Sequence record: OR999189.1
DNA length: 64,000 nt
Origin: Enterobacteria phage P922
Strand: one strand, 5' to 3'
Part shown: positions 2,906 through 25,957 of the stretch, piece by piece
How the letters are laid out: each line of letters begins with the position of its first letter
Position numbering within the stretch: position 1 is the first letter of the stretch
The notes under the pieces: generated by a model
What the model was told of the DNA's origin: nothing
The model's database searches: none
What the model saw: only the letters and a program-made list of their open reading frames with translations
Made by a program: the position numbers and the translations under genes

Positions 2906-2963
2906 TGTTTACTTCCTCCAAGGGTTTTGATACTATACATTCATCAACTACTTGGAGGAAATT

Positions 2964-3377
2964 ATGACCCGTATCAATTTAACACTTGTTTCTGAATTGG
3001 CCGACCAACATCTTATGGCTGAGTATCGTGAATTACCACGCGTATTTGGTGCAGTCCGTAAACATGTTCAAAACGGTAAATGTGTAAAGGATTTTAAAAT
3101 CTCTCCAACATTTATATTAGGCACAGGTCACGTAACATTCTTTTACGACAAACTCGAATTTTTACGTTTACGTCAAATCGAGCTAATCGCTGAATGCTTG
3201 AAACGTGGTTTCAAAATCAAGGACACGACTGTCCAGGATATTTCCGACATCCCTGCCGAATTTCGTAATAATTATGTCCCGGACGAAGCGTCCATTGCGA
3301 TAAGTCAAGCACGCTTAGATGAAAAAATTGCTCAACGTCCTACTTGGTACAAATACTATGGTAAATCAATTTACTAA
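2964..3377 (+). CDS. denV: endonuclease V, pyrimidine dimer DNA glycosylase (DenV)
   Basis: [34 protein letters not shown]... matches T4 DenV; GGAGG RBS before ATG 2964. Confidence 0.92.
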
Positions 3378-3389
3378 GGAAAAATTAAA

Positions 3390-3644
3390 ATGTATCAAGA
3401 ATTTATCGCTGAAGCAGATGCCAAAGGCCCCAAATTTAAAGTTAAAGCTTTCATTGGTGATGCCGAAGATTTTGGCTCATTAAAACGTAATGGGTATTCT
3501 TTCTCAGGCGGCAATGGTAAAGAAATAAACACCTATGCAAAACGTAGTGAAATTGCTTATGTTGTAGTAAGCCCTAAAGTAGATGTTGACGATATTGGAT
3601 ACGATTTTAACAACTTCGGAATTATTTCTGGCGGTAAAGCTTAA
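3390..3644 (+). CDS. internal protein-like small protein
   Basis: Starts MYQEFIAEA, a CTS-like motif lacking the KT dipeptide; 84 aa. Confidence 0.55.
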   Translation: MYQEFIAEADAKGPKFKVKAFIGDAEDFGSLKRNGYSFSGGNGKEINTYAKRSEIAYVVVSPKVDVDDIGYDFNNFGIISGGKA

Positions 3645-3705: not shown

Positions 3706-4281
3706 ATGAAAACGTATAAAGAATTTATCGCTGAAGCTTCTGTGGAAAAGGCCAAAGGCATTAATAAAGATGAGTGGACTTACCGAGGAAATGGTTTTGA
3801 CCCTAAAACAGCCCCTATTGAACGATACTTAGCTACAAAAGCTTCCGACTTTAAAGCTTTCGCTTGGGAAGGACTTCGCTGGTGTACTGATCTAAATATT
3901 GAAGTTGATGGGCTTAAATTTGGCCATATTCAAGATGTTGTTGCTAGTAACTTGGACGCAGCTTTTGTTAAAGCTGACGGTGACCTTCGTCGCTGGAATT
4001 TAAAATTATTCTCTAAACAGAAAGGCCCAGTGTTTGTGCCTAAAGCTGGTAAATGGGTTATTGATAATAAATTAGCTAAGGCTGTCAACTTCGCCGGTCT
4101 TGAATTTGCCAAGCACAAATCGGCATGGAAAGGTCTTGATGCAATGGCTTTCCGTAAAGAATTCGCCGAGGTTATGACTAAAGGCGGCTTTAAGGCAGAA
4201 CTAGATACCTCTAAAGGTACGTTTAAAGACGCTAATGTTCAGTATGCTTACGCCGTTGCTAATGCAGCCCGTGGTAATTAA
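3706..4281 (+). CDS. ipIII: internal protein III-like (IPIII)
   Basis: MKTYKEFIAEASVEKAKGINKDEWTYRGNGFDPKTAPIERYLATKASDFKAFAWEGLRW... resembles T4 IPIII; CTS present. Confidence 0.8.
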   Translation: MKTYKEFIAEASVEKAKGINKDEWTYRGNGFDPKTAPIERYLATKASDFKAFAWEGLRWCTDLNIEVDGLKFGHIQDVVASNLDAAFVKADGDLRRWNLKLFSKQKGPVFVPKAGKWVIDNKLAKAVNFAGLEFAKHKSAWKGLDAMAFRKEFAEVMTKGGFKAELDTSKGTFKDANVQYAYAVANAARGN

Positions 4282-4306: not shown

Positions 4307-4458
4307 CATTCAAATAACATGGGAACAAGCTGGACCTCATGATTCTATGAGAGATTCCCGCCAACCTGTAATAAGGTCGAGCCCAAGTGCGGTAATGGGT
4401 AAATACAGAAATGGACAATTCATGCGCCATGGAATGGCCCAAATTTAGAGAGAATAAA

Positions 4459-5001
4459 ATGAGAACATTTTTAACTGGTCCTTATCTATCCCTGATGAAT
4501 GCTTTTACACACCATTCTGATGCTAGAGTAGAAGAAATTTGTAATAGTGGATTTTATGTACCTGATTCGTCGCATTTATTTAAAGAATATTGTACACTTC
4601 GTTTAGATGGTGGCAGACAATCTGGTAAATCAACTGCAGTAACTAATTTTGCCGCTAATTGGTTGTATGACGGTGGAACAGTTATTGTTCTTTCTAATAC
4701 TTCAGCTTACGCTAAAATTTCTGCGGGCCACATTAAAAAAGAATTTTCGCGTTATTCTAGCGATGATATTCGATTCCGCTTATTTACTGATTCTGTGCGC
4801 AGTTTTATTGGGAATAAAGGAAGCAAGTTCAGAGGTTTATCGCTTTCGCGGATTTTGTATATAATCGATGAGCCTGTTAAATCTCCTGATATGGATAAAA
4901 TTTACGATATTCATATTGAAACTGTGCACCACTGTTGCAATAGTAAATGCTGCATTGGCGGTATTACTCGTCCGCAGTTTTTCGTAATTGGGATGCAATG
5001 A
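4459..5001 (+). CDS. small P-loop NTPase (Walker A GGRQSGKST, Walker B LYIIDEP)
   Basis: ORF track 4411..5001; start at ATG 4459 chosen for weak GAGAG RBS; ATGs at 4411/4429 also possible. Confidence 0.55.
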   Translation: MRTFLTGPYLSLMNAFTHHSDARVEEICNSGFYVPDSSHLFKEYCTLRLDGGRQSGKSTAVTNFAANWLYDGGTVIVLSNTSAYAKISAGHIKKEFSRYSSDDIRFRLFTDSVRSFIGNKGSKFRGLSLSRILYIIDEPVKSPDMDKIYDIHIETVHHCCNSKCCIGGITRPQFFVIGMQ

Positions 5002-5327
5002 TGACAGATACGCAACTTTTCGAATATCTTTATTTTTCGCCAAAAACTATTAAAAATAAATTGGTGAATCATTTTGAAATTTTGGCAAATAACAACGTCT
5101 TGAGCGAATTTTATCCCAAGCAATACAAATTACAAAAAGGTGTATTCAAAGGATGCAGAGTTTTGTGCACTGCTCCTAATGCAAGATTAATGAATAAAAT
5201 TCCATATTTTACCATGGAATTTATTGATGGACCTTTTAAAGGACTAATCACCCAAAGTTTAATGGCATATGATTCTGAGCCATTTTTAATTAAAGAACAA
5301 TCTTGGATAAATTTATTTTCTAATTGA
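4998..5327 (+). CDS. hypothetical protein
   Basis: ORF track 4947..5327; ATG 4998 overlaps upstream stop (ATGATGA). Confidence 0.45.
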
Positions 5328-5335
5328 GAGGTTAT

Positions 5336-5698
5336 ATGAAAGCATACCAAATTCTTGAAGGCACACATAAAGGTACTATTTATTTTGAAGATGGTATTCA
5401 AGCACGAATTATTGTTTCTAAAACCTTTAAAGAGGATTCTTTTGTAGACCCAGAAATTTTCTATGGTTTGCATGCCCGTGAAATTGAAATTGAAACACAA
5501 CCTACAGTTAAAATCGAGGGTGGTCAACACCTGAACGTTAACGTTCTGCGTCGTGAAACTCTGGAAGATGCAGTTAAGCATCCGGAAAAATATCCGCAGC
5601 TGACCATCCGTGTATCCGGTTATGCAGTTCGCTTTAACTCTCTGACTCCGGAACAGCAGCGCGACGTTATCGCTCGTACCTTTACTGAGAGTTTGTAA
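5336..5698 (+). CDS. GrcA/YfiD-like autonomous glycyl-radical cofactor
   Basis: C-terminal ~60 aa [59 protein letters not shown] with RVSGY glycyl radical motif; GAGAGG RBS. Confidence 0.85.
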
Positions 5699-5919
5699 TG
5701 GCAAAGATAATTATTGAAGGTTCTAAAGATGTGCTAAATGCTTTCGCCGAGTGGTTTAGTAATTCAGGCGAACAGCAATTTAATGAAGCATGGAACATGG
5801 GTGATATTAGTGGAATTTATCCTACGACAGAAATTTCTGTTCAGGGATATGGCATTCATGAACCTATTCGTTTAGTTGAATATGATTTGGGTACTGGTGA
5901 GGAAGTAAAATATGATTGA
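5698..5919 (+). CDS. hypothetical small protein
   Basis: ORF track; ATG overlaps upstream stop. Confidence 0.45.
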   Translation: MAKIIIEGSKDVLNAFAEWFSNSGEQQFNEAWNMGDISGIYPTTEISVQGYGIHEPIRLVEYDLGTGEEVKYD

Positions 5920-7530: not shown

Positions 7531-7864
7531 AATTTTGGTTTTATGTGTAGGATTAATTTCATTTTCTGCGTTAGCAAATACATCATACACTGAAATTAGA
7601 GAGTATGTAAACCGTACTGCCGCGGATTATTGTGGGAAAAATAAAGCATGCCAAGCTGAATTTGCGCAGAAATTAATATATGCATATAAAGACGGAGAAA
7701 GAGATAAATCAAGCAGATATAAAAATGATACTTTATTAAAACGATATGCTAAAAAGTGGAATACCTTAGAATGTTCAGTTGCGGAGGAGAAAGATAAAGC
7801 CGCTTGTCATTCAATGGTTGACCGTTTGGTAGATTCTTATAATCGAGGATTGAGTACTAGATGA
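7523..7864 (+). CDS. secreted/periplasmic small protein with signal peptide
   Basis: N-terminal MTKILVLCVGLISFSALA signal peptide; four Cys; 113 aa. Confidence 0.6.
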   Translation: MTKILVLCVGLISFSALANTSYTEIREYVNRTAADYCGKNKACQAEFAQKLIYAYKDGERDKSSRYKNDTLLKRYAKKWNTLECSVAEEKDKAACHSMVDRLVDSYNRGLSTR

Positions 7865-8340
7865 TTGTAAAATATATCAAGGGCGATATTGTCGCCCTAT
7901 TTCTTCAAGGTAATATTATTGCGCACGGATGCAACTGCTTCCACACAATGGGCTCTGGTGTAGCGGGTCAATTAGCAAGAGCCTATCCCAAAATTTTAGA
8001 AATAGATAAAACCACTACCGAATACGGTTCTCGTGATAAATTAGGCGATATGTCTATTGTTTTTAAGCATAGTCCTACGGGATTTGGTATATGCTATAAC
8101 CTGTATACGCAATACGAACCGGGTCCTAATCTTGATTATGGTGCTTTAGTAAATTGCATGATAGAATTAAATCTACAGGCAGAAACCCTTTTGTTTAAAC
8201 CAGTAATTTACATTCCACGCATAGGTTGTGGTATTGCTGGCGGTGATTGGGATAAGGTTTCTAAATTAATCGACATGTTTACTCCTGATATTGATTTAAT
8301 AGTGGTGGATTATGAAAGCACATTACCCACATCCGTTTGA
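7861..8340 (+). CDS. macro domain (ADP-ribose binding/processing) protein
   Basis: Motifs GCNCFHTMGSGVAGQLA and IGCGIAGGDWDKV resemble the two glycine-rich loops of macro domains. Confidence 0.65.
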   Translation: MIVKYIKGDIVALFLQGNIIAHGCNCFHTMGSGVAGQLARAYPKILEIDKTTTEYGSRDKLGDMSIVFKHSPTGFGICYNLYTQYEPGPNLDYGALVNCMIELNLQAETLLFKPVIYIPRIGCGIAGGDWDKVSKLIDMFTPDIDLIVVDYESTLPTSV

Positions 8341-23202: not shown

Positions 23203-23676
23203 ATGTTATTGACTGGCAAATTATATAAAGAAGAAAAACAGAAATTTTATGATGCACAAAACGGTAAATGCTTAATTTGCCAACGAGAATTAAATCCTGA
23301 TGTTCAAGCTAATCACCTTGACCATGACCATGAATTAAATGGACCGAAAGCAGGAAAGGTACGTGGATTGCTTTGTAATCTCTGCAATGCTGCAGAAGGT
23401 CAAATGAAACATAAATTTAATCGTTCTGGTTTAAAGGGACAAGGTGTTGATTATCTTGAATGGTTAGAAAATTTACTTACTTATTTAAAATCCGATTACA
23501 CCCAAAATAATATTCACCCTAACTTTGTTGGAGATAAATCAAAGGAATTTTCTCGTTTAGGAAAAGAGGAAATGATGGCTGAGATGCTTCAAAGAGGATT
23601 TGAATATAATGAATCTGACACTAAAACACAATTAATAGCTTCATTTAAGAAGCAGCTTAGAAAGAGTTTAAAATGA
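23203..23676 (+). CDS. 49: endonuclease VII (Holliday junction resolvase, gene 49)
   Basis: 157 aa, zinc-binding Cys cluster CLICQ...CNLCN and HLDHDH; matches T4 gp49. Confidence 0.92.
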   Translation: MLLTGKLYKEEKQKFYDAQNGKCLICQRELNPDVQANHLDHDHELNGPKAGKVRGLLCNLCNAAEGQMKHKFNRSGLKGQGVDYLEWLENLLTYLKSDYTQNNIHPNFVGDKSKEFSRLGKEEMMAEMLQRGFEYNESDTKTQLIASFKKQLRKSLK

Positions 23677-25490
23677 CAATTGAAAAAGAAATTGAAGGAT
23701 TGATTCATAAAACTAATAAAGACCTTTTAAACGAGAATGCTAATAAAGATTCTCGTGTTTTTCCAACTCAACGGGACCTTATGGCTGGTATTGTGTCTAA
23801 ACACATTGCCAAAAATATGGTCCCGTCTTTTATTATGAAAGCGCATGAAAGCGGAATTATCCATTTCCACGATATTGATTATTCCCCTGCTCTTCCATTT
23901 ACTAATTGTTGTTTAGTAGATTTAAAAGGAATGCTTGAAAACGGATTTAAGCTCGGCAATGCACAGATTGAAACTCCTAAATCAATCGGCGTTGCTACTG
24001 CAATTATGGCACAAATTACTGCACAGGTTGCTTCCCATCAATACGGTGGAACGACTTTTGCGAATGTAGATAAAATCCTTTCTCCTTATGTTAAACGCAC
24101 CTATGCAAAACATATTGAAGACGCGGAAAAATGGCAAATCACTGATGCGTTGAATTATGCCCAATCTAAAACAGAAAAAGACGTATACGATGCATTCCAA
24201 GCTTATGAATATGAAGTAAATACTCTCTTTAGTTCAAACGGACAAACGCCTTTTGTAACAATTACATTTGGTACGGGAACTGACTGGACTGAACGAATGA
24301 TTCAGAAAGCAATTCTGAAAAATCGTATTAAAGGTCTTGGTCGTGATGGGATAACTCCTATTTTCCCTAAGCTTGTTATGTTCGTTGAAGAAGGTGTTAA
24401 TCTTTATAAAGACGATCCGAACTATGATATTAAGCAGCTTGCTCTAGAGTGTGCAAGCAAAAGAATGTATCCTGACATCATTTCGGCTAAGAACAATAAA
24501 GCTATCACCGGTTCATCTATTCCTGTTTCTCCAATGGGTTGTCGTAGTTTCTTGGGCGTATGGAAAGATTCGACTGGTAATGAAATTCTTGATGGACGTA
24601 ATAATCTTGGTGTTGTAACACTAAATCTTCCTCGTATTGCGTTAGATTCTTATATTGGAACACAGTTCAATGAACAGAAATTTGCCGAATTGTTCAATGA
24701 ACGAATGGATTTATGTTTTGAAGCATTGATGTGTAGAATTAGTTCCTTAAAAGGAGTTAAAGCTACTGTTGCTCCTATTCTTTACCAAGAAGGCGCATTC
24801 GGGGTTCGTCTTAAACCTGATGACGATATAATTGAGTTATTTAAAAACGGTAGAAGTTCAGTGTCCTTAGGATACATTGGTATTCACGAATTGAATATTC
24901 TTGTCGGTCGTGATATTGGACAAGAAATTTTAACTAAAATGAATGCTCATCTTAAGCAGTGGACTGAAAGAACCGGTTTTGCTTTTAGTTTGTATTCTAC
25001 ACCTGCTGAAAACCTGTGCTATCGCTTCTGTAAACTTGATACCGAAAAATATGGAAGTGTAAAGGATGTTACTGATAAAGGCTGGTACACTAACAGTTTC
25101 CACGTTTCAGTAGAAGAAAATATTACTCCGTTTGAAAAGATTTCTCGCGAAGCCCCATATCATTTCATTGCGACAGGTGGTCACATTTCTTATGTTGAAC
25201 TTCCTGATATGAAAAATAACCTAAAGGGTCTTGAGGCTGTATGGGATTATGCTGCACAACATTTAGATTATTTTGGTGTTAATATGCCAGTAGATAAATG
25301 TTTTACATGTGGAAGTACCCATGAAATGACTCCTACTGAAAACGGATTTGTTTGTTCTATTTGTGGAGAAACTGATCCTAAAAAGATGAACACAATAAGA
25401 AGAACTTGTGGTTATTTGGGAAATCCGAATGAACGCGGATTTAATCTCGGCAAAAATAAAGAAATCATGCATAGGGTTAAACACCAATGA
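23673..25490 (+). CDS. nrdD: anaerobic ribonucleotide reductase NrdD
   Basis: 605 aa; C-terminal Zn ribbon CFTCGS...CSICG and glycyl radical region RRTCGYLG; uninterrupted. Confidence 0.95.
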   Translation: MTIEKEIEGLIHKTNKDLLNENANKDSRVFPTQRDLMAGIVSKHIAKNMVPSFIMKAHESGIIHFHDIDYSPALPFTNCCLVDLKGMLENGFKLGNAQIETPKSIGVATAIMAQITAQVASHQYGGTTFANVDKILSPYVKRTYAKHIEDAEKWQITDALNYAQSKTEKDVYDAFQAYEYEVNTLFSSNGQTPFVTITFGTGTDWTERMIQKAILKNRIKGLGRDGITPIFPKLVMFVEEGVNLYKDDPNYDIKQLALECASKRMYPDIISAKNNKAITGSSIPVSPMGCRSFLGVWKDSTGNEILDGRNNLGVVTLNLPRIALDSYIGTQFNEQKFAELFNERMDLCFEALMCRISSLKGVKATVAPILYQEGAFGVRLKPDDDIIELFKNGRSSVSLGYIGIHELNILVGRDIGQEILTKMNAHLKQWTERTGFAFSLYSTPAENLCYRFCKLDTEKYGSVKDVTDKGWYTNSFHVSVEENITPFEKISREAPYHFIATGGHISYVELPDMKNNLKGLEAVWDYAAQHLDYFGVNMPVDKCFTCGSTHEMTPTENGFVCSICGETDPKKMNTIRRTCGYLGNPNERGFNLGKNKEIMHRVKHQ

Positions 25491-25957
25491 ATTACGATAG
25501 ATTTTATCCCTGCGATTTTGTAAATGGCCCTGGATGCAGGGTCGTTCTTTTCGTTACGGGGTGTTTGCATAAATGTGAAGGGTGTTATAATAAATCAACA
25601 TGGAATGCTAGAAATGGCGTTCCATTCACTGGTGAAACACTAGAACAATTAATTGAATGTTTGAATAATGATTATATAGAAGGATTAACTATAACTGGAG
25701 GAGACCCTCTTTATCCTGATAACCGAGATGATGTTCATTGCATTGTTCAAACGGTAAAAAATCTTTATCCGAATAAAAGCATTTGGTTGTGGACAGGATA
25801 TAAGTTTGAAGATATTAAACAACTAGAAATGCTTAAATATGTTGATGTTATTATTGATGGGAAGTATGAGAAAAATCTTCCGACCAAAAAGCTGTGGCGA
25901 GGTTCAGATAATCAGCGGCTTTGGTCAAATACCGATGGGGTGTGGAAACATGATTAA
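25487..25957 (+). CDS. nrdG: anaerobic RNR activating enzyme NrdG (radical SAM)
   Basis: Cys cluster CLHKCEGCYN near the N-terminus; 156 aa; ATGA overlap with nrdD. Confidence 0.9.
   Translation: MNYDRFYPCDFVNGPGCRVVLFVTGCLHKCEGCYNKSTWNARNGVPFTGETLEQLIECLNNDYIEGLTITGGDPLYPDNRDDVHCIVQTVKNLYPNKSIWLWTGYKFEDIKQLEMLKYVDVIIDGKYEKNLPTKKLWRGSDNQRLWSNTDGVWKHD

Follow-up and report, generated by a model that had tools for sequence, protein, structure and literature searches.

A tract identical to Escherichia coli grcA spans the glycyl-radical domain of the T4-type vs.6 gene in Enterobacteria phage P922

Introduction

The 64,000-nucleotide stretch of Enterobacteria phage P922 analysed here (sequence record OR999189.1; the whole stretch is referred to below as the window) is a Tequatrovirus (T4-like) segment; over its first 25 kb it shares 97.6% identity with phages Nami and EcNP1. 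At positions 5336–5698 it carries an open reading frame (ORF) for a small protein, Vs.6, related to the autonomous glycyl-radical cofactor GrcA (YfiD) of Escherichia coli, and the 3′ half of this ORF is nearly indistinguishable from the host gene. The question raised by the locus is how, and when, a tract of host chromosome came to lie inside a phage gene. A preliminary description, made from the sequence alone, had proposed a recent capture of the host radical domain. The explanation that best accounts for the evidence as a whole, and that we consider highly probable, is that the ORF is the ortholog of T4 vs.6 (Y06I), an old T-even gene whose radical-domain segment has been overwritten by host grcA. 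The parts of the gene on which the argument depends are the following.

5336–5698, plus strand: vs.6 (Y06I) ortholog, encoding a 120-residue autonomous glycyl-radical cofactor of the GrcA/YfiD type (ORF listing; T4, Pfam, PDB and PHROG matches).
5336–5515, plus strand: 5′ half of vs.6, residues 1–60, the old phage-lineage part (GC content at third codon positions, GC3, 0.17; hhalign to bacterial GrcA N-terminal halves).
5519–5688, plus strand: host-derived tract of 170 nucleotides, covering Gly-62 to Thr-117 and part of Glu-118, the structured glycyl-radical domain (100% identity to E. coli grcA).
5618–5620, plus strand: GGT codon of Gly-95 in the RVSGYAV motif, the predicted radical-bearing glycine (codon position; alignment to GrcA and pyruvate formate-lyase, PFL).
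5689–5698, plus strand: retained phage-type 3′ end, G AGT TTG TAA, aligned with A AGC CTG TAA in E. coli.

The host-identical tract

The last 60 residues of Vs.6, Glu-61 to Leu-120, are identical to residues 68–127 of E. coli GrcA at all 60 positions, as the preliminary description had stated, and the likeness extends to the DNA. Window positions 5516–5698 match E. coli grcA at 179 of 183 nucleotides, a figure that holds for each of the 5,426 complete genomes searched. All four mismatches are located at the edges, in the first codon and in the last three sense codons, and the interior, 5519–5688, is an unbroken perfect match of 170 nucleotides. This match is far beyond chance, and in a megablast search with the first 25 kb of the window the vs.6 tract is the top match to every E. 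coli genome. The composition of the tract is equally distinctive. Its GC content is 0.50 compared with 0.345 for the whole window, which places it at the 99.98th percentile of all 170-nucleotide windows, and the maximum for segments of this length (0.506) begins at 5511. The 3′ half of vs.6 has a GC3 of 0.45, above both its 5′ half (0.17) and the background genes (0.245), and the codons of the tract are dominated by CTG for leucine (five of six; background 8%) and CCG for proline (three of three; background 15%). The GC scan of the window, GC3 and the use of CTG and CCG all agree with the earlier observation of a GC-richer 3′ part with E. coli-preferred codons.

The host comparison was made with 80 enterobacterial and Pasteurellaceae grcA loci, the best 80 of a genome-contig scan. 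Over the segment 5516–5698 the window is identical to cryptic Escherichia grcA at 177 of 183 nucleotides, to Citrobacter amalonaticus grcA at 166 of 183 and to Salmonella grcA at 150 of 183; Citrobacter GrcA has the same 60 residues as Vs.6 and Salmonella GrcA differs at two. Where an enterobacterial grcA gene specifies the identical 60 residues, its DNA matches the window at only 82–91%, and the DNA identity to E. coli grcA therefore exceeds what protein constraint would require. Within this segment, 21 sites separate the grcA of E. coli from that of Klebsiella pneumoniae, and the window carries the E. coli base at every one of them. Synonymous divergence (dS), calculated by the Nei–Gojobori method over the 3′ half of the gene, is 0.095 between the window and E. 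coli grcA, with zero differences in the 170-nucleotide core, and the corresponding values between E. coli grcA and its counterparts in Citrobacter, K. pneumoniae and Salmonella are 0.36, 0.56 and 1.02. Phage RB16 (locus L097) provides a control: its C-terminal 60 residues are also 100% identical to those of E. coli GrcA and its dS is ~2, from which it follows that synonymous sites saturate under a fixed protein sequence when no replacement resets them. The synonymous-site identity and the dS of 0.095 confirm the part of the preliminary description that took the 3′ half of vs.6 to be host-derived. Eleven loci retrieved during the comparison (L153–L163) encode PflB-type C-termini with the MNREMLLDAME motif and no phage grcA, and were set aside.

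Family assignment and client enzyme

The vs.6 gene of the window is 97.5% identical in nucleotides to T4 vs.6 (NC_000866, 63557–63919; NP_049730), the 5′ half at 96.7% and the 3′ half at 98.4%, and the two proteins differ at two of 120 residues (Thr-54 here and Pro-54 in T4; Arg-73 here and His-73 in T4). The T4 gene is labelled "autonomous glycyl radical cofactor GrcA" by RefSeq. Vs.6 scores 67.2 bits with the Pfam Gly_radical model (PF01228, cutoff 22.2), retrieves E. coli YfiD (6OWR, E 4.6e-42) and pyruvate formate-lyase (E 5e-26) from the PDB, and aligns over its full length, residues 1–120, with positions 1–121 of PHROG 1209 (E 5.4e-63). It is a stand-alone small protein lacking the barrel of glycyl-radical enzymes, its ORF being bounded by vs.7 and vs.5, and it displays two features of the GrcA family, a PFL-type C-terminal Gly_radical domain with the RVSGYAV loop and a GrcA-type N-terminal half. 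The Pfam and PDB matches and the 60/60 identity to GrcA thus sustain the original assignment to the GrcA-type cofactor genes. By alignment offset, Gly-95 of Vs.6 corresponds to Gly-102 of GrcA, which is equivalent to Gly-734 of PflB, the radical site position being as described in PMC8683613.

PMC8683613, citing Wagner et al. 2001, presents YfiD and T4 Y06I as the only two validated spare-part proteins; according to the same text, the PFL-activating enzyme (PFL-AE, PflA) places a glycyl radical on both in vitro, and activated Y06I complexes with PflB that has been cleaved by oxygen at Gly-734, whereupon activity is regained. A corresponding route can be proposed for the window. Vs.6 would be made during infection from the vs.8–vs.3 cluster, host PFL-AE would install the radical on Gly-95, and the activated protein would dock on PflB cleaved at Gly-734 and stand in for the lost C-terminal segment, the restored PflB yielding acetyl-CoA and formate again; for activation, docking and restoration this follows in vitro reports on T4 Y06I. 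An infected cell whose gene expression has been shut off would presumably be unable to renew its own GrcA, and Vs.6 may then keep up the fermentative energy supply in a microaerobic host, since PFL in the microaerobic gut would give acetyl-CoA and hence ATP. Formate is the reductant of class III ribonucleotide reductases, and its supply would tie vs.6 indirectly to the phage genes nrdD and nrdG.

These two genes are located ~18 kb downstream of vs.6 on the plus strand, nrdD at 23673–25490, with a Gly_radical domain of its own by Pfam, and nrdG, for a radical-SAM activase, at 25487–25957. They constitute a second glycyl-radical system in the same genome as vs.6.

A direct connection, in which Vs.6 serves phage NrdD as its spare part, with NrdG of the phage as activase, instead of serving host PflB, is very improbable. 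Its appeal lies in the presence of both genes within the same window, in the fact that NrdD is also a glycyl-radical enzyme cleaved by oxygen at its glycine, and in the speculation of Nolan et al. (2006) on a role of vs.6 in nucleotide metabolism (PMC1524935). However, BLASTP finds no significant similarity between Vs.6 and the NrdD of the window (E 6.3), and the glycine loops are unlike, RRTCGYLG following a Cys-rich segment in NrdD and IRVSGYAV in Vs.6. In addition, the PDB matches of Vs.6 include PFL and no NrdD chain, the domain is 100% identical to that of GrcA and 80% to that of PflB, and PFL rescue is reported for Y06I (PMC8683613). From these comparisons the supported client would be PflB, possibly TdcE, and not NrdD. 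The preliminary description had named both NrdD and PflB as enzymes that the product could repair; the PflB part finds a basis in the literature on the T4 ortholog (PMC8683613), and the NrdD part finds none in the sequence.

Age of the gene and of the tract

The N-terminal half of Vs.6, of which ~55 residues had been regarded as unrelated to the host protein, proved to be a diverged GrcA homolog. BLASTP aligns it with GrcA residues 1–67 at 35% identity over 40 residues (E 2e-6), and an hhalign comparison restricted to the phage and bacterial GrcA N-terminal halves gives 97.8% probability and an E-value of 8.4e-13 over 59 of 60 columns. A multiple alignment of phage and GrcA N-termini displays the common pattern QI..G..(T/S)(I/F)...AR..V(S/A)K..ED..V....RE(V/I)..E..P.V. 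In other phages the 5′ half is 86–87% identical to that of the window in Mosigvirus and 72% identical in Jiaodavirus. Residues 1–60 of YfiD are disordered yet needed for cPFL binding and efficient activation, and residues 61–127 reproduce the fold of PFL residues 693–759 (PMC8683613). The host-derived tract coincides almost exactly with the structured domain, and the old phage-type half with the disordered half.

Homologs of vs.6 are present in 1,463 phage records from several families, and full-length orthologs with phage-like 3′ halves are found in other T-even genera and in T5-like and jumbo phages. A split-gene search, in which the 5′ and 3′ halves were compared separately with 50,697 phage records, returned 648 records at 80% identity or more for the 5′ half, ranging from 86 to 100%, and 641 records at 95% or more for the 3′ half, with only five at 90–95%. 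A separate genus, Mosigvirus (RB69-like; p000v, mogra, SA79RD, EP32a), accounts for the 86–89% class of the 5′ half, and the host-like tract is shared by about 640 Tequatrovirus and Mosigvirus records. In T4 itself, vs.6 matches E. coli grcA at 180 of 183 positions, compared with 179 of 183 in the window. The T4 homolog is thus equally close to the host gene, a result that had been named beforehand as pointing to an old phage gene, and the claim of a recent capture in this phage is refuted.

A lineage-specific capture of that kind, with the host radical domain newly fused to an unrelated phage N-terminal peptide to form a chimera in this phage, would agree with the abrupt jump in composition and identity at ~5516–5519 and with the host-identical C-terminal 60 residues. 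It is nevertheless even less probable than an NrdD-directed spare part, because Vs.6 has an N-terminal half homologous to that of GrcA, because full-length orthologs with phage-like 3′ halves occur in the phage groups named above and because the same tract is present in T4 and in about 640 other records. Neither does the locus resemble a recently captured whole host gene: it is host-like only at 5519–5688 and its homologs are widespread among phages. The gene as a whole appears to be an old full-length grcA homolog in which only the segment for residues ~61–117 has been overwritten.

The comparison between the window and Mosigvirus bears on the age of this overwriting. Identity is 70% in vs.7, 86–87% in the 5′ half of vs.6, 96–97% in the 3′ half of vs.6, 73% in vs.5 and 73% in regB, and dS is 0.54–0.66 for the 5′ half of vs.6 and 0.10–0.20 for the 3′ half (Fisher p about 0.01). 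The 170-nucleotide core has zero differences from E. coli in members of both genera (the window and locus L089), and the E. coli base is found at 21 of the 21 diagnostic sites in the window, in T4 and in three of four Mosigvirus genes, the fourth, from SA79RD, having 20. The phage copies of the tract bear their own scattered substitutions. At the 3′ end, Tequatrovirus and Mosigvirus have the phage-type GAG AGT CTA/TTG TAA where E. coli has GAA AGC CTG TAA, and since this ending is kept in both genera the tract must stop just before the last three sense codons. The ending GAG AGT CTA TAA is common to Mosigvirus, RB16 and KP15. On these sequence comparisons, the tract appears much younger than the split between Tequatrovirus and Mosigvirus, the replacement having followed their divergence and having become fixed in both genera.

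Probable independent replacement in Klebsiella phages

The same segment of the same orthologous gene appears to have been replaced by host DNA at least twice independently. The ortholog in the Jiaodavirus phage KP17 (L168, 1821–2183) has the same synteny as the window, and from the 5′ half, 72% identical to that of the window, to the 3′ half its GC3 rises from 0.27 to 0.63, a larger compositional jump than in the window. Over nucleotides 181–353 its identity is 97.1% with K. pneumoniae grcA and 88% with the E. coli gene; in the core, 166 of 171 positions agree with K. pneumoniae, and the tract contains the Klebsiella-type residues LLDAVEH. The K. pneumoniae base is present at 17 of the 21 diagnostic sites in KP17 and at 13–18 of 21 across four Jiaodavirus phages, and upstream the tract is bounded at the codon that also bounds it in phages of E. 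coli. When nucleotides 202–374 of K. pneumoniae grcA were compared with the phage records, 77 matched at 95–99% and 61 at 90–95%. K. pneumoniae grcA was not among the best 80 loci of the genome-contig scan, and the reference was taken from chromosome CP125156.1 (L169), which is wrongly filed as a plasmid in PLSDB.

The Klebsiella phages also bear on the proposal that no transfer took place and that purifying selection, together with host-preferred codons in a highly expressed phage gene, produced the resemblance by convergence. Near-absolute constraint on the domain, with a nonsynonymous divergence (dN) of 0 in several phage–host comparisons, and the E. coli-preferred codons of the tract are what such convergence would give. 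It is exceedingly unlikely all the same: hosts with the identical 60 residues and similar codon bias reach only the 82–91% DNA identity reported above, RB16 retains the identical protein at a dS of ~2, and the 5′ half of the same mRNA has a GC3 of 0.17, which excludes gene-wide codon selection. Moreover, the synonymous sites follow the host species, those of the Klebsiella phages matching K. pneumoniae-specific bases (17 of 21 in KP17) and those of the window being E. coli-type at 21 of 21.

RB16 (L097, 1501–1863) and KP15 (L100, 1501–1863), which belong to T-even genera more distant from the window, may be older, ameliorated replacements, which is suggestive only. The C-terminal 60 residues of KP15 are 100% identical to those of K. 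pneumoniae GrcA, with saturated synonymous divergence. Against amelioration, RB16-type genes that are 98.9% identical occur in Enterobacter phages, and the Enterobacter GrcA examined has LMDAVEH at that position.

Several records met in this comparison have peculiarities of their own. The PLSDB entry CP125156.1 is a whole K. pneumoniae chromosome of 5.37 Mb labelled 'plasmid unnamed2'. In the PLSDB entry LR134122.1 (L170), a K. aerogenes fragment, a frameshift in grcA (an extra A in GAAAAAATA) truncates the annotated coding sequence. The IMG/VR copy of phage KPV15 (L109, 1501–1859) has a vs.6 ortholog of 359 instead of 363 nucleotides with five stops, a frameshift or sequencing error, and its 3′ tract still matches K. 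pneumoniae grcA at 173 of 183 positions. An apparent Yersinia-matched phage copy (164 of 180) on a 19-kb contig classed as viral (L112, IMGVR_UViG_2706794630_000006, 1291–1797) was rejected: it is a bacterial-type grcA MITGIQITKASNEALL, and the contig is probably host DNA or prophage-flanking sequence.

Origin of the mosaic

The direction of transfer is from host to phage, because the 3′ halves of host grcA genes diverge in keeping with host relationships (E. coli, cryptic Escherichia, Citrobacter, Klebsiella, Salmonella, in that order), because the host genes are typical of the host in composition in their 5′ and 3′ halves alike, and because the tract is a compositional outlier in the phage. 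The phage segment for residues ~61–117 would have been replaced by E. coli chromosomal grcA through homologous recombination (gene conversion), and the same segment would have been replaced separately by K. pneumoniae grcA in Jiaodavirus. The tract seems to end, on both sides, inside the two most conserved nucleotide blocks, a 10-residue block and RTFT. Its boundaries probably coincide for the reason that recombination can resolve only within these blocks, the sequence upstream being too diverged and the gene ending downstream. It is also possible, although we lean slightly against it, that each phage lineage re-templates the functional domain of vs.6 from the chromosome of the host species it infects.

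Two further explanations of the tract have a negligible chance of being correct. Host-read contamination or an assembly chimera might be suspected from the tract being the sole near-identical E. coli match in the first 25 kb of the window, but it lies in frame with the same boundaries in hundreds of phages that were sequenced independently, T4 among them as the reference, the phage copies have acquired scattered substitutions of their own, and the ORF is intact with its stop overlapping the vs.5 start. Transfer from phage to host, by which E. coli and K. pneumoniae would owe their grcA 3′ halves to T-even phages, gains only from the fact that near-identity by itself gives no direction, and is as good as dismissed by the host relationships and compositions given above.

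Some observations weigh against an old vs.6 gene overwritten by host grcA, or restrict how far that reading extends. The distribution in Tequatrovirus and Mosigvirus may reflect either separate conversions in the two genera or one conversion spread by phage–phage recombination, the identical boundaries fitting both. E. coli-infecting T-even phages of other genera, such as PHB13 and MIZ3, have tracts only ~75% identical to that of the window, and no Salmonella-type tract at 95% identity or more was found in the phage collection; conversion would therefore be rare and not continuous. In T5-like phages the tract is 72–75% identical to that of the window. With the NCBIfam GrcA equivalog model (TIGR04365, IPR011140), Vs.6 scores 154.6 bits, below the cutoff of 170, and E. 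coli GrcA scores 233.9, the shortfall being due to the diverged N-terminal half. The most suitable place for Vs.6 is in a phage branch (Vs.6/Y06I) of the GrcA family; by the NCBIfam criterion it is no bacterial equivalog. As to function, the biochemistry is that of T4 Y06I, two residues apart, and PFL rescue by the protein of the window is a prediction; the accessible literature yielded nothing on an in vivo benefit of vs.6 to the phage.

Gene neighbourhood

The immediate surroundings of the overwritten vs.6 gene comprise the following elements.

4998–5327, plus strand: vs.7 ortholog, upstream neighbour in the tightly packed vs.8–vs.3 cluster (95.7% identity to T4 vs.7; PHROG 2049).
5326–5329, plus strand: GAGG, a putative Shine–Dalgarno element six nucleotides 5′ of the vs.6 ATG, read from the sequence TAATTGAGAGGTTATATG.
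5698–5919, plus strand: vs.5 ortholog, downstream neighbour (93.6% identity to T4 vs.5; PHROG 1986).

The gene order around vs.6 is that of T4, denV ... vs.8, vs.7, vs.6, vs.5, vs.4, vs.3, regB, vs.1, vs, tk.4 ... tk. Adjacent genes are closely joined: the start of vs.7 overlaps the stop of vs.8 (ATGA), and vs.6 and vs.5 share one A, which ends the stop codon of the former and opens the ATG of the latter (TAATG), the vs.6 ORF being intact. Between 4200 and 6600, promoter-like sites are no commoner than in shuffled sequence, and the four terminator-like sites, compared with an expected 1.8 ± 1.4, represent no clear enrichment; the putative ribosome-binding site is thus the only regulatory element assigned. 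An antisense ORF of 197 codons at 5111–5704 (minus strand) spans vs.7 and vs.6 and is most likely spurious.

Other features of the region were noted in passing. The vs.8 gene (4411–5001, plus strand) is 86.7% identical to T4 vs.8, compared with 94–98% for the adjoining genes, and forms a local mosaic patch; its product contains the Walker-A-like GGRQSGKST and weakly matches the terminase large subunit in PHROG (phrog_2, E 8e-6). Between denV (2952–3377) and vs.8 there are two plus-strand ORFs without a Pfam match, at 3390–3644 (84 residues) and 3706–4281 (191 residues), both with an internal-protein-like start, M(K/-)(T/-)Y(Q/K)EFIAEA. The T4 genes ipII and ipIII are located on the opposite side of denV, and Mosigvirus records annotate ipII/ipIII at the position found in the window. 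The Tk.4 ortholog (7861–8340, plus strand) carries a Macro domain, of the ADP-ribose-binding kind (Pfam PF01661, E 1.3e-7).

Significance and comparison with known systems

Both the gene and its biochemical role have been described before, and what the window holds is a known T4 gene and no new kind of system. The recurrent host-matched replacement is a modestly interesting evolutionary observation: in different phage genera, the same domain-sized segment of one orthologous gene appears to have been overwritten by the grcA of two host species. No report of a host-matched mosaic or of host-specific versions was found in the accessible literature, which did not cover key papers, and novelty is possible but unproven. 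Nolan et al. (2006) found vs.6 in six of six T4-like genomes, with a Gly_radical match, and described T4-like genomes as being without recent host acquisitions (PMC1524935); re-templating from the host, if true, would run against that view (PMC1524935). The overwriting, as read here, gives direct evidence from nature for recombination between virulent T-even phages and the chromosomes of their hosts, and it points to strong pressure for a host-compatible radical domain. If the replacements were selected, whether for a matching interface with PflB and PFL-AE or for host-optimal codons, they would represent natural host-tracking by recombination in strictly lytic, host-DNA-degrading phages. With 170 bp of exchanged sequence, known biochemistry and T4 genetics, vs.6 offers a tractable system for measuring host-to-phage gene conversion. 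For annotation, the lesson is that a tract 100% identical to the host in a lytic phage genome need not be contamination.

Among known proteins, T4 Vs.6 agrees with the protein of the window in length (120 residues), in the position of its gene, flanked by vs.7 and vs.5, and in its E. coli-type tract; at residue 73 the protein of the window is nearer to E. coli GrcA than that of T4. The Vs.6 proteins of Jiaodavirus (KP17, KPV15 and others) have mosaic boundaries within a few bases of those in the window and differ in that their tract is K. pneumoniae-type and not E. coli-type. E. coli GrcA (YfiD, 6OWR) shares the layout of Vs.6, an N-terminal half, disordered in YfiD, followed by the structured glycyl-radical domain (YfiD 61–127). 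In contrast with GrcA, Vs.6 is encoded by a lytic phage in an early-region gene cluster, and its N-terminal half is seven residues shorter and ~29–35% identical to that of the host protein. The C-terminal glycyl-radical domain of PflB (693–759) is identical to Vs.6 at 48 of 60 residues (80%), the RVSGYAV loop included, although PflB carries a catalytic barrel of ~700 residues that the stand-alone 120-residue protein lacks. An evolutionary parallel is cyanophage psbA, a phage copy of a host metabolic gene that has exchanged patches with the host allele by intragenic recombination. The two cases differ in gene, host and phage group, and in vs.6 the patch is a single fixed tract, the size of a domain, in phages that degrade host DNA.

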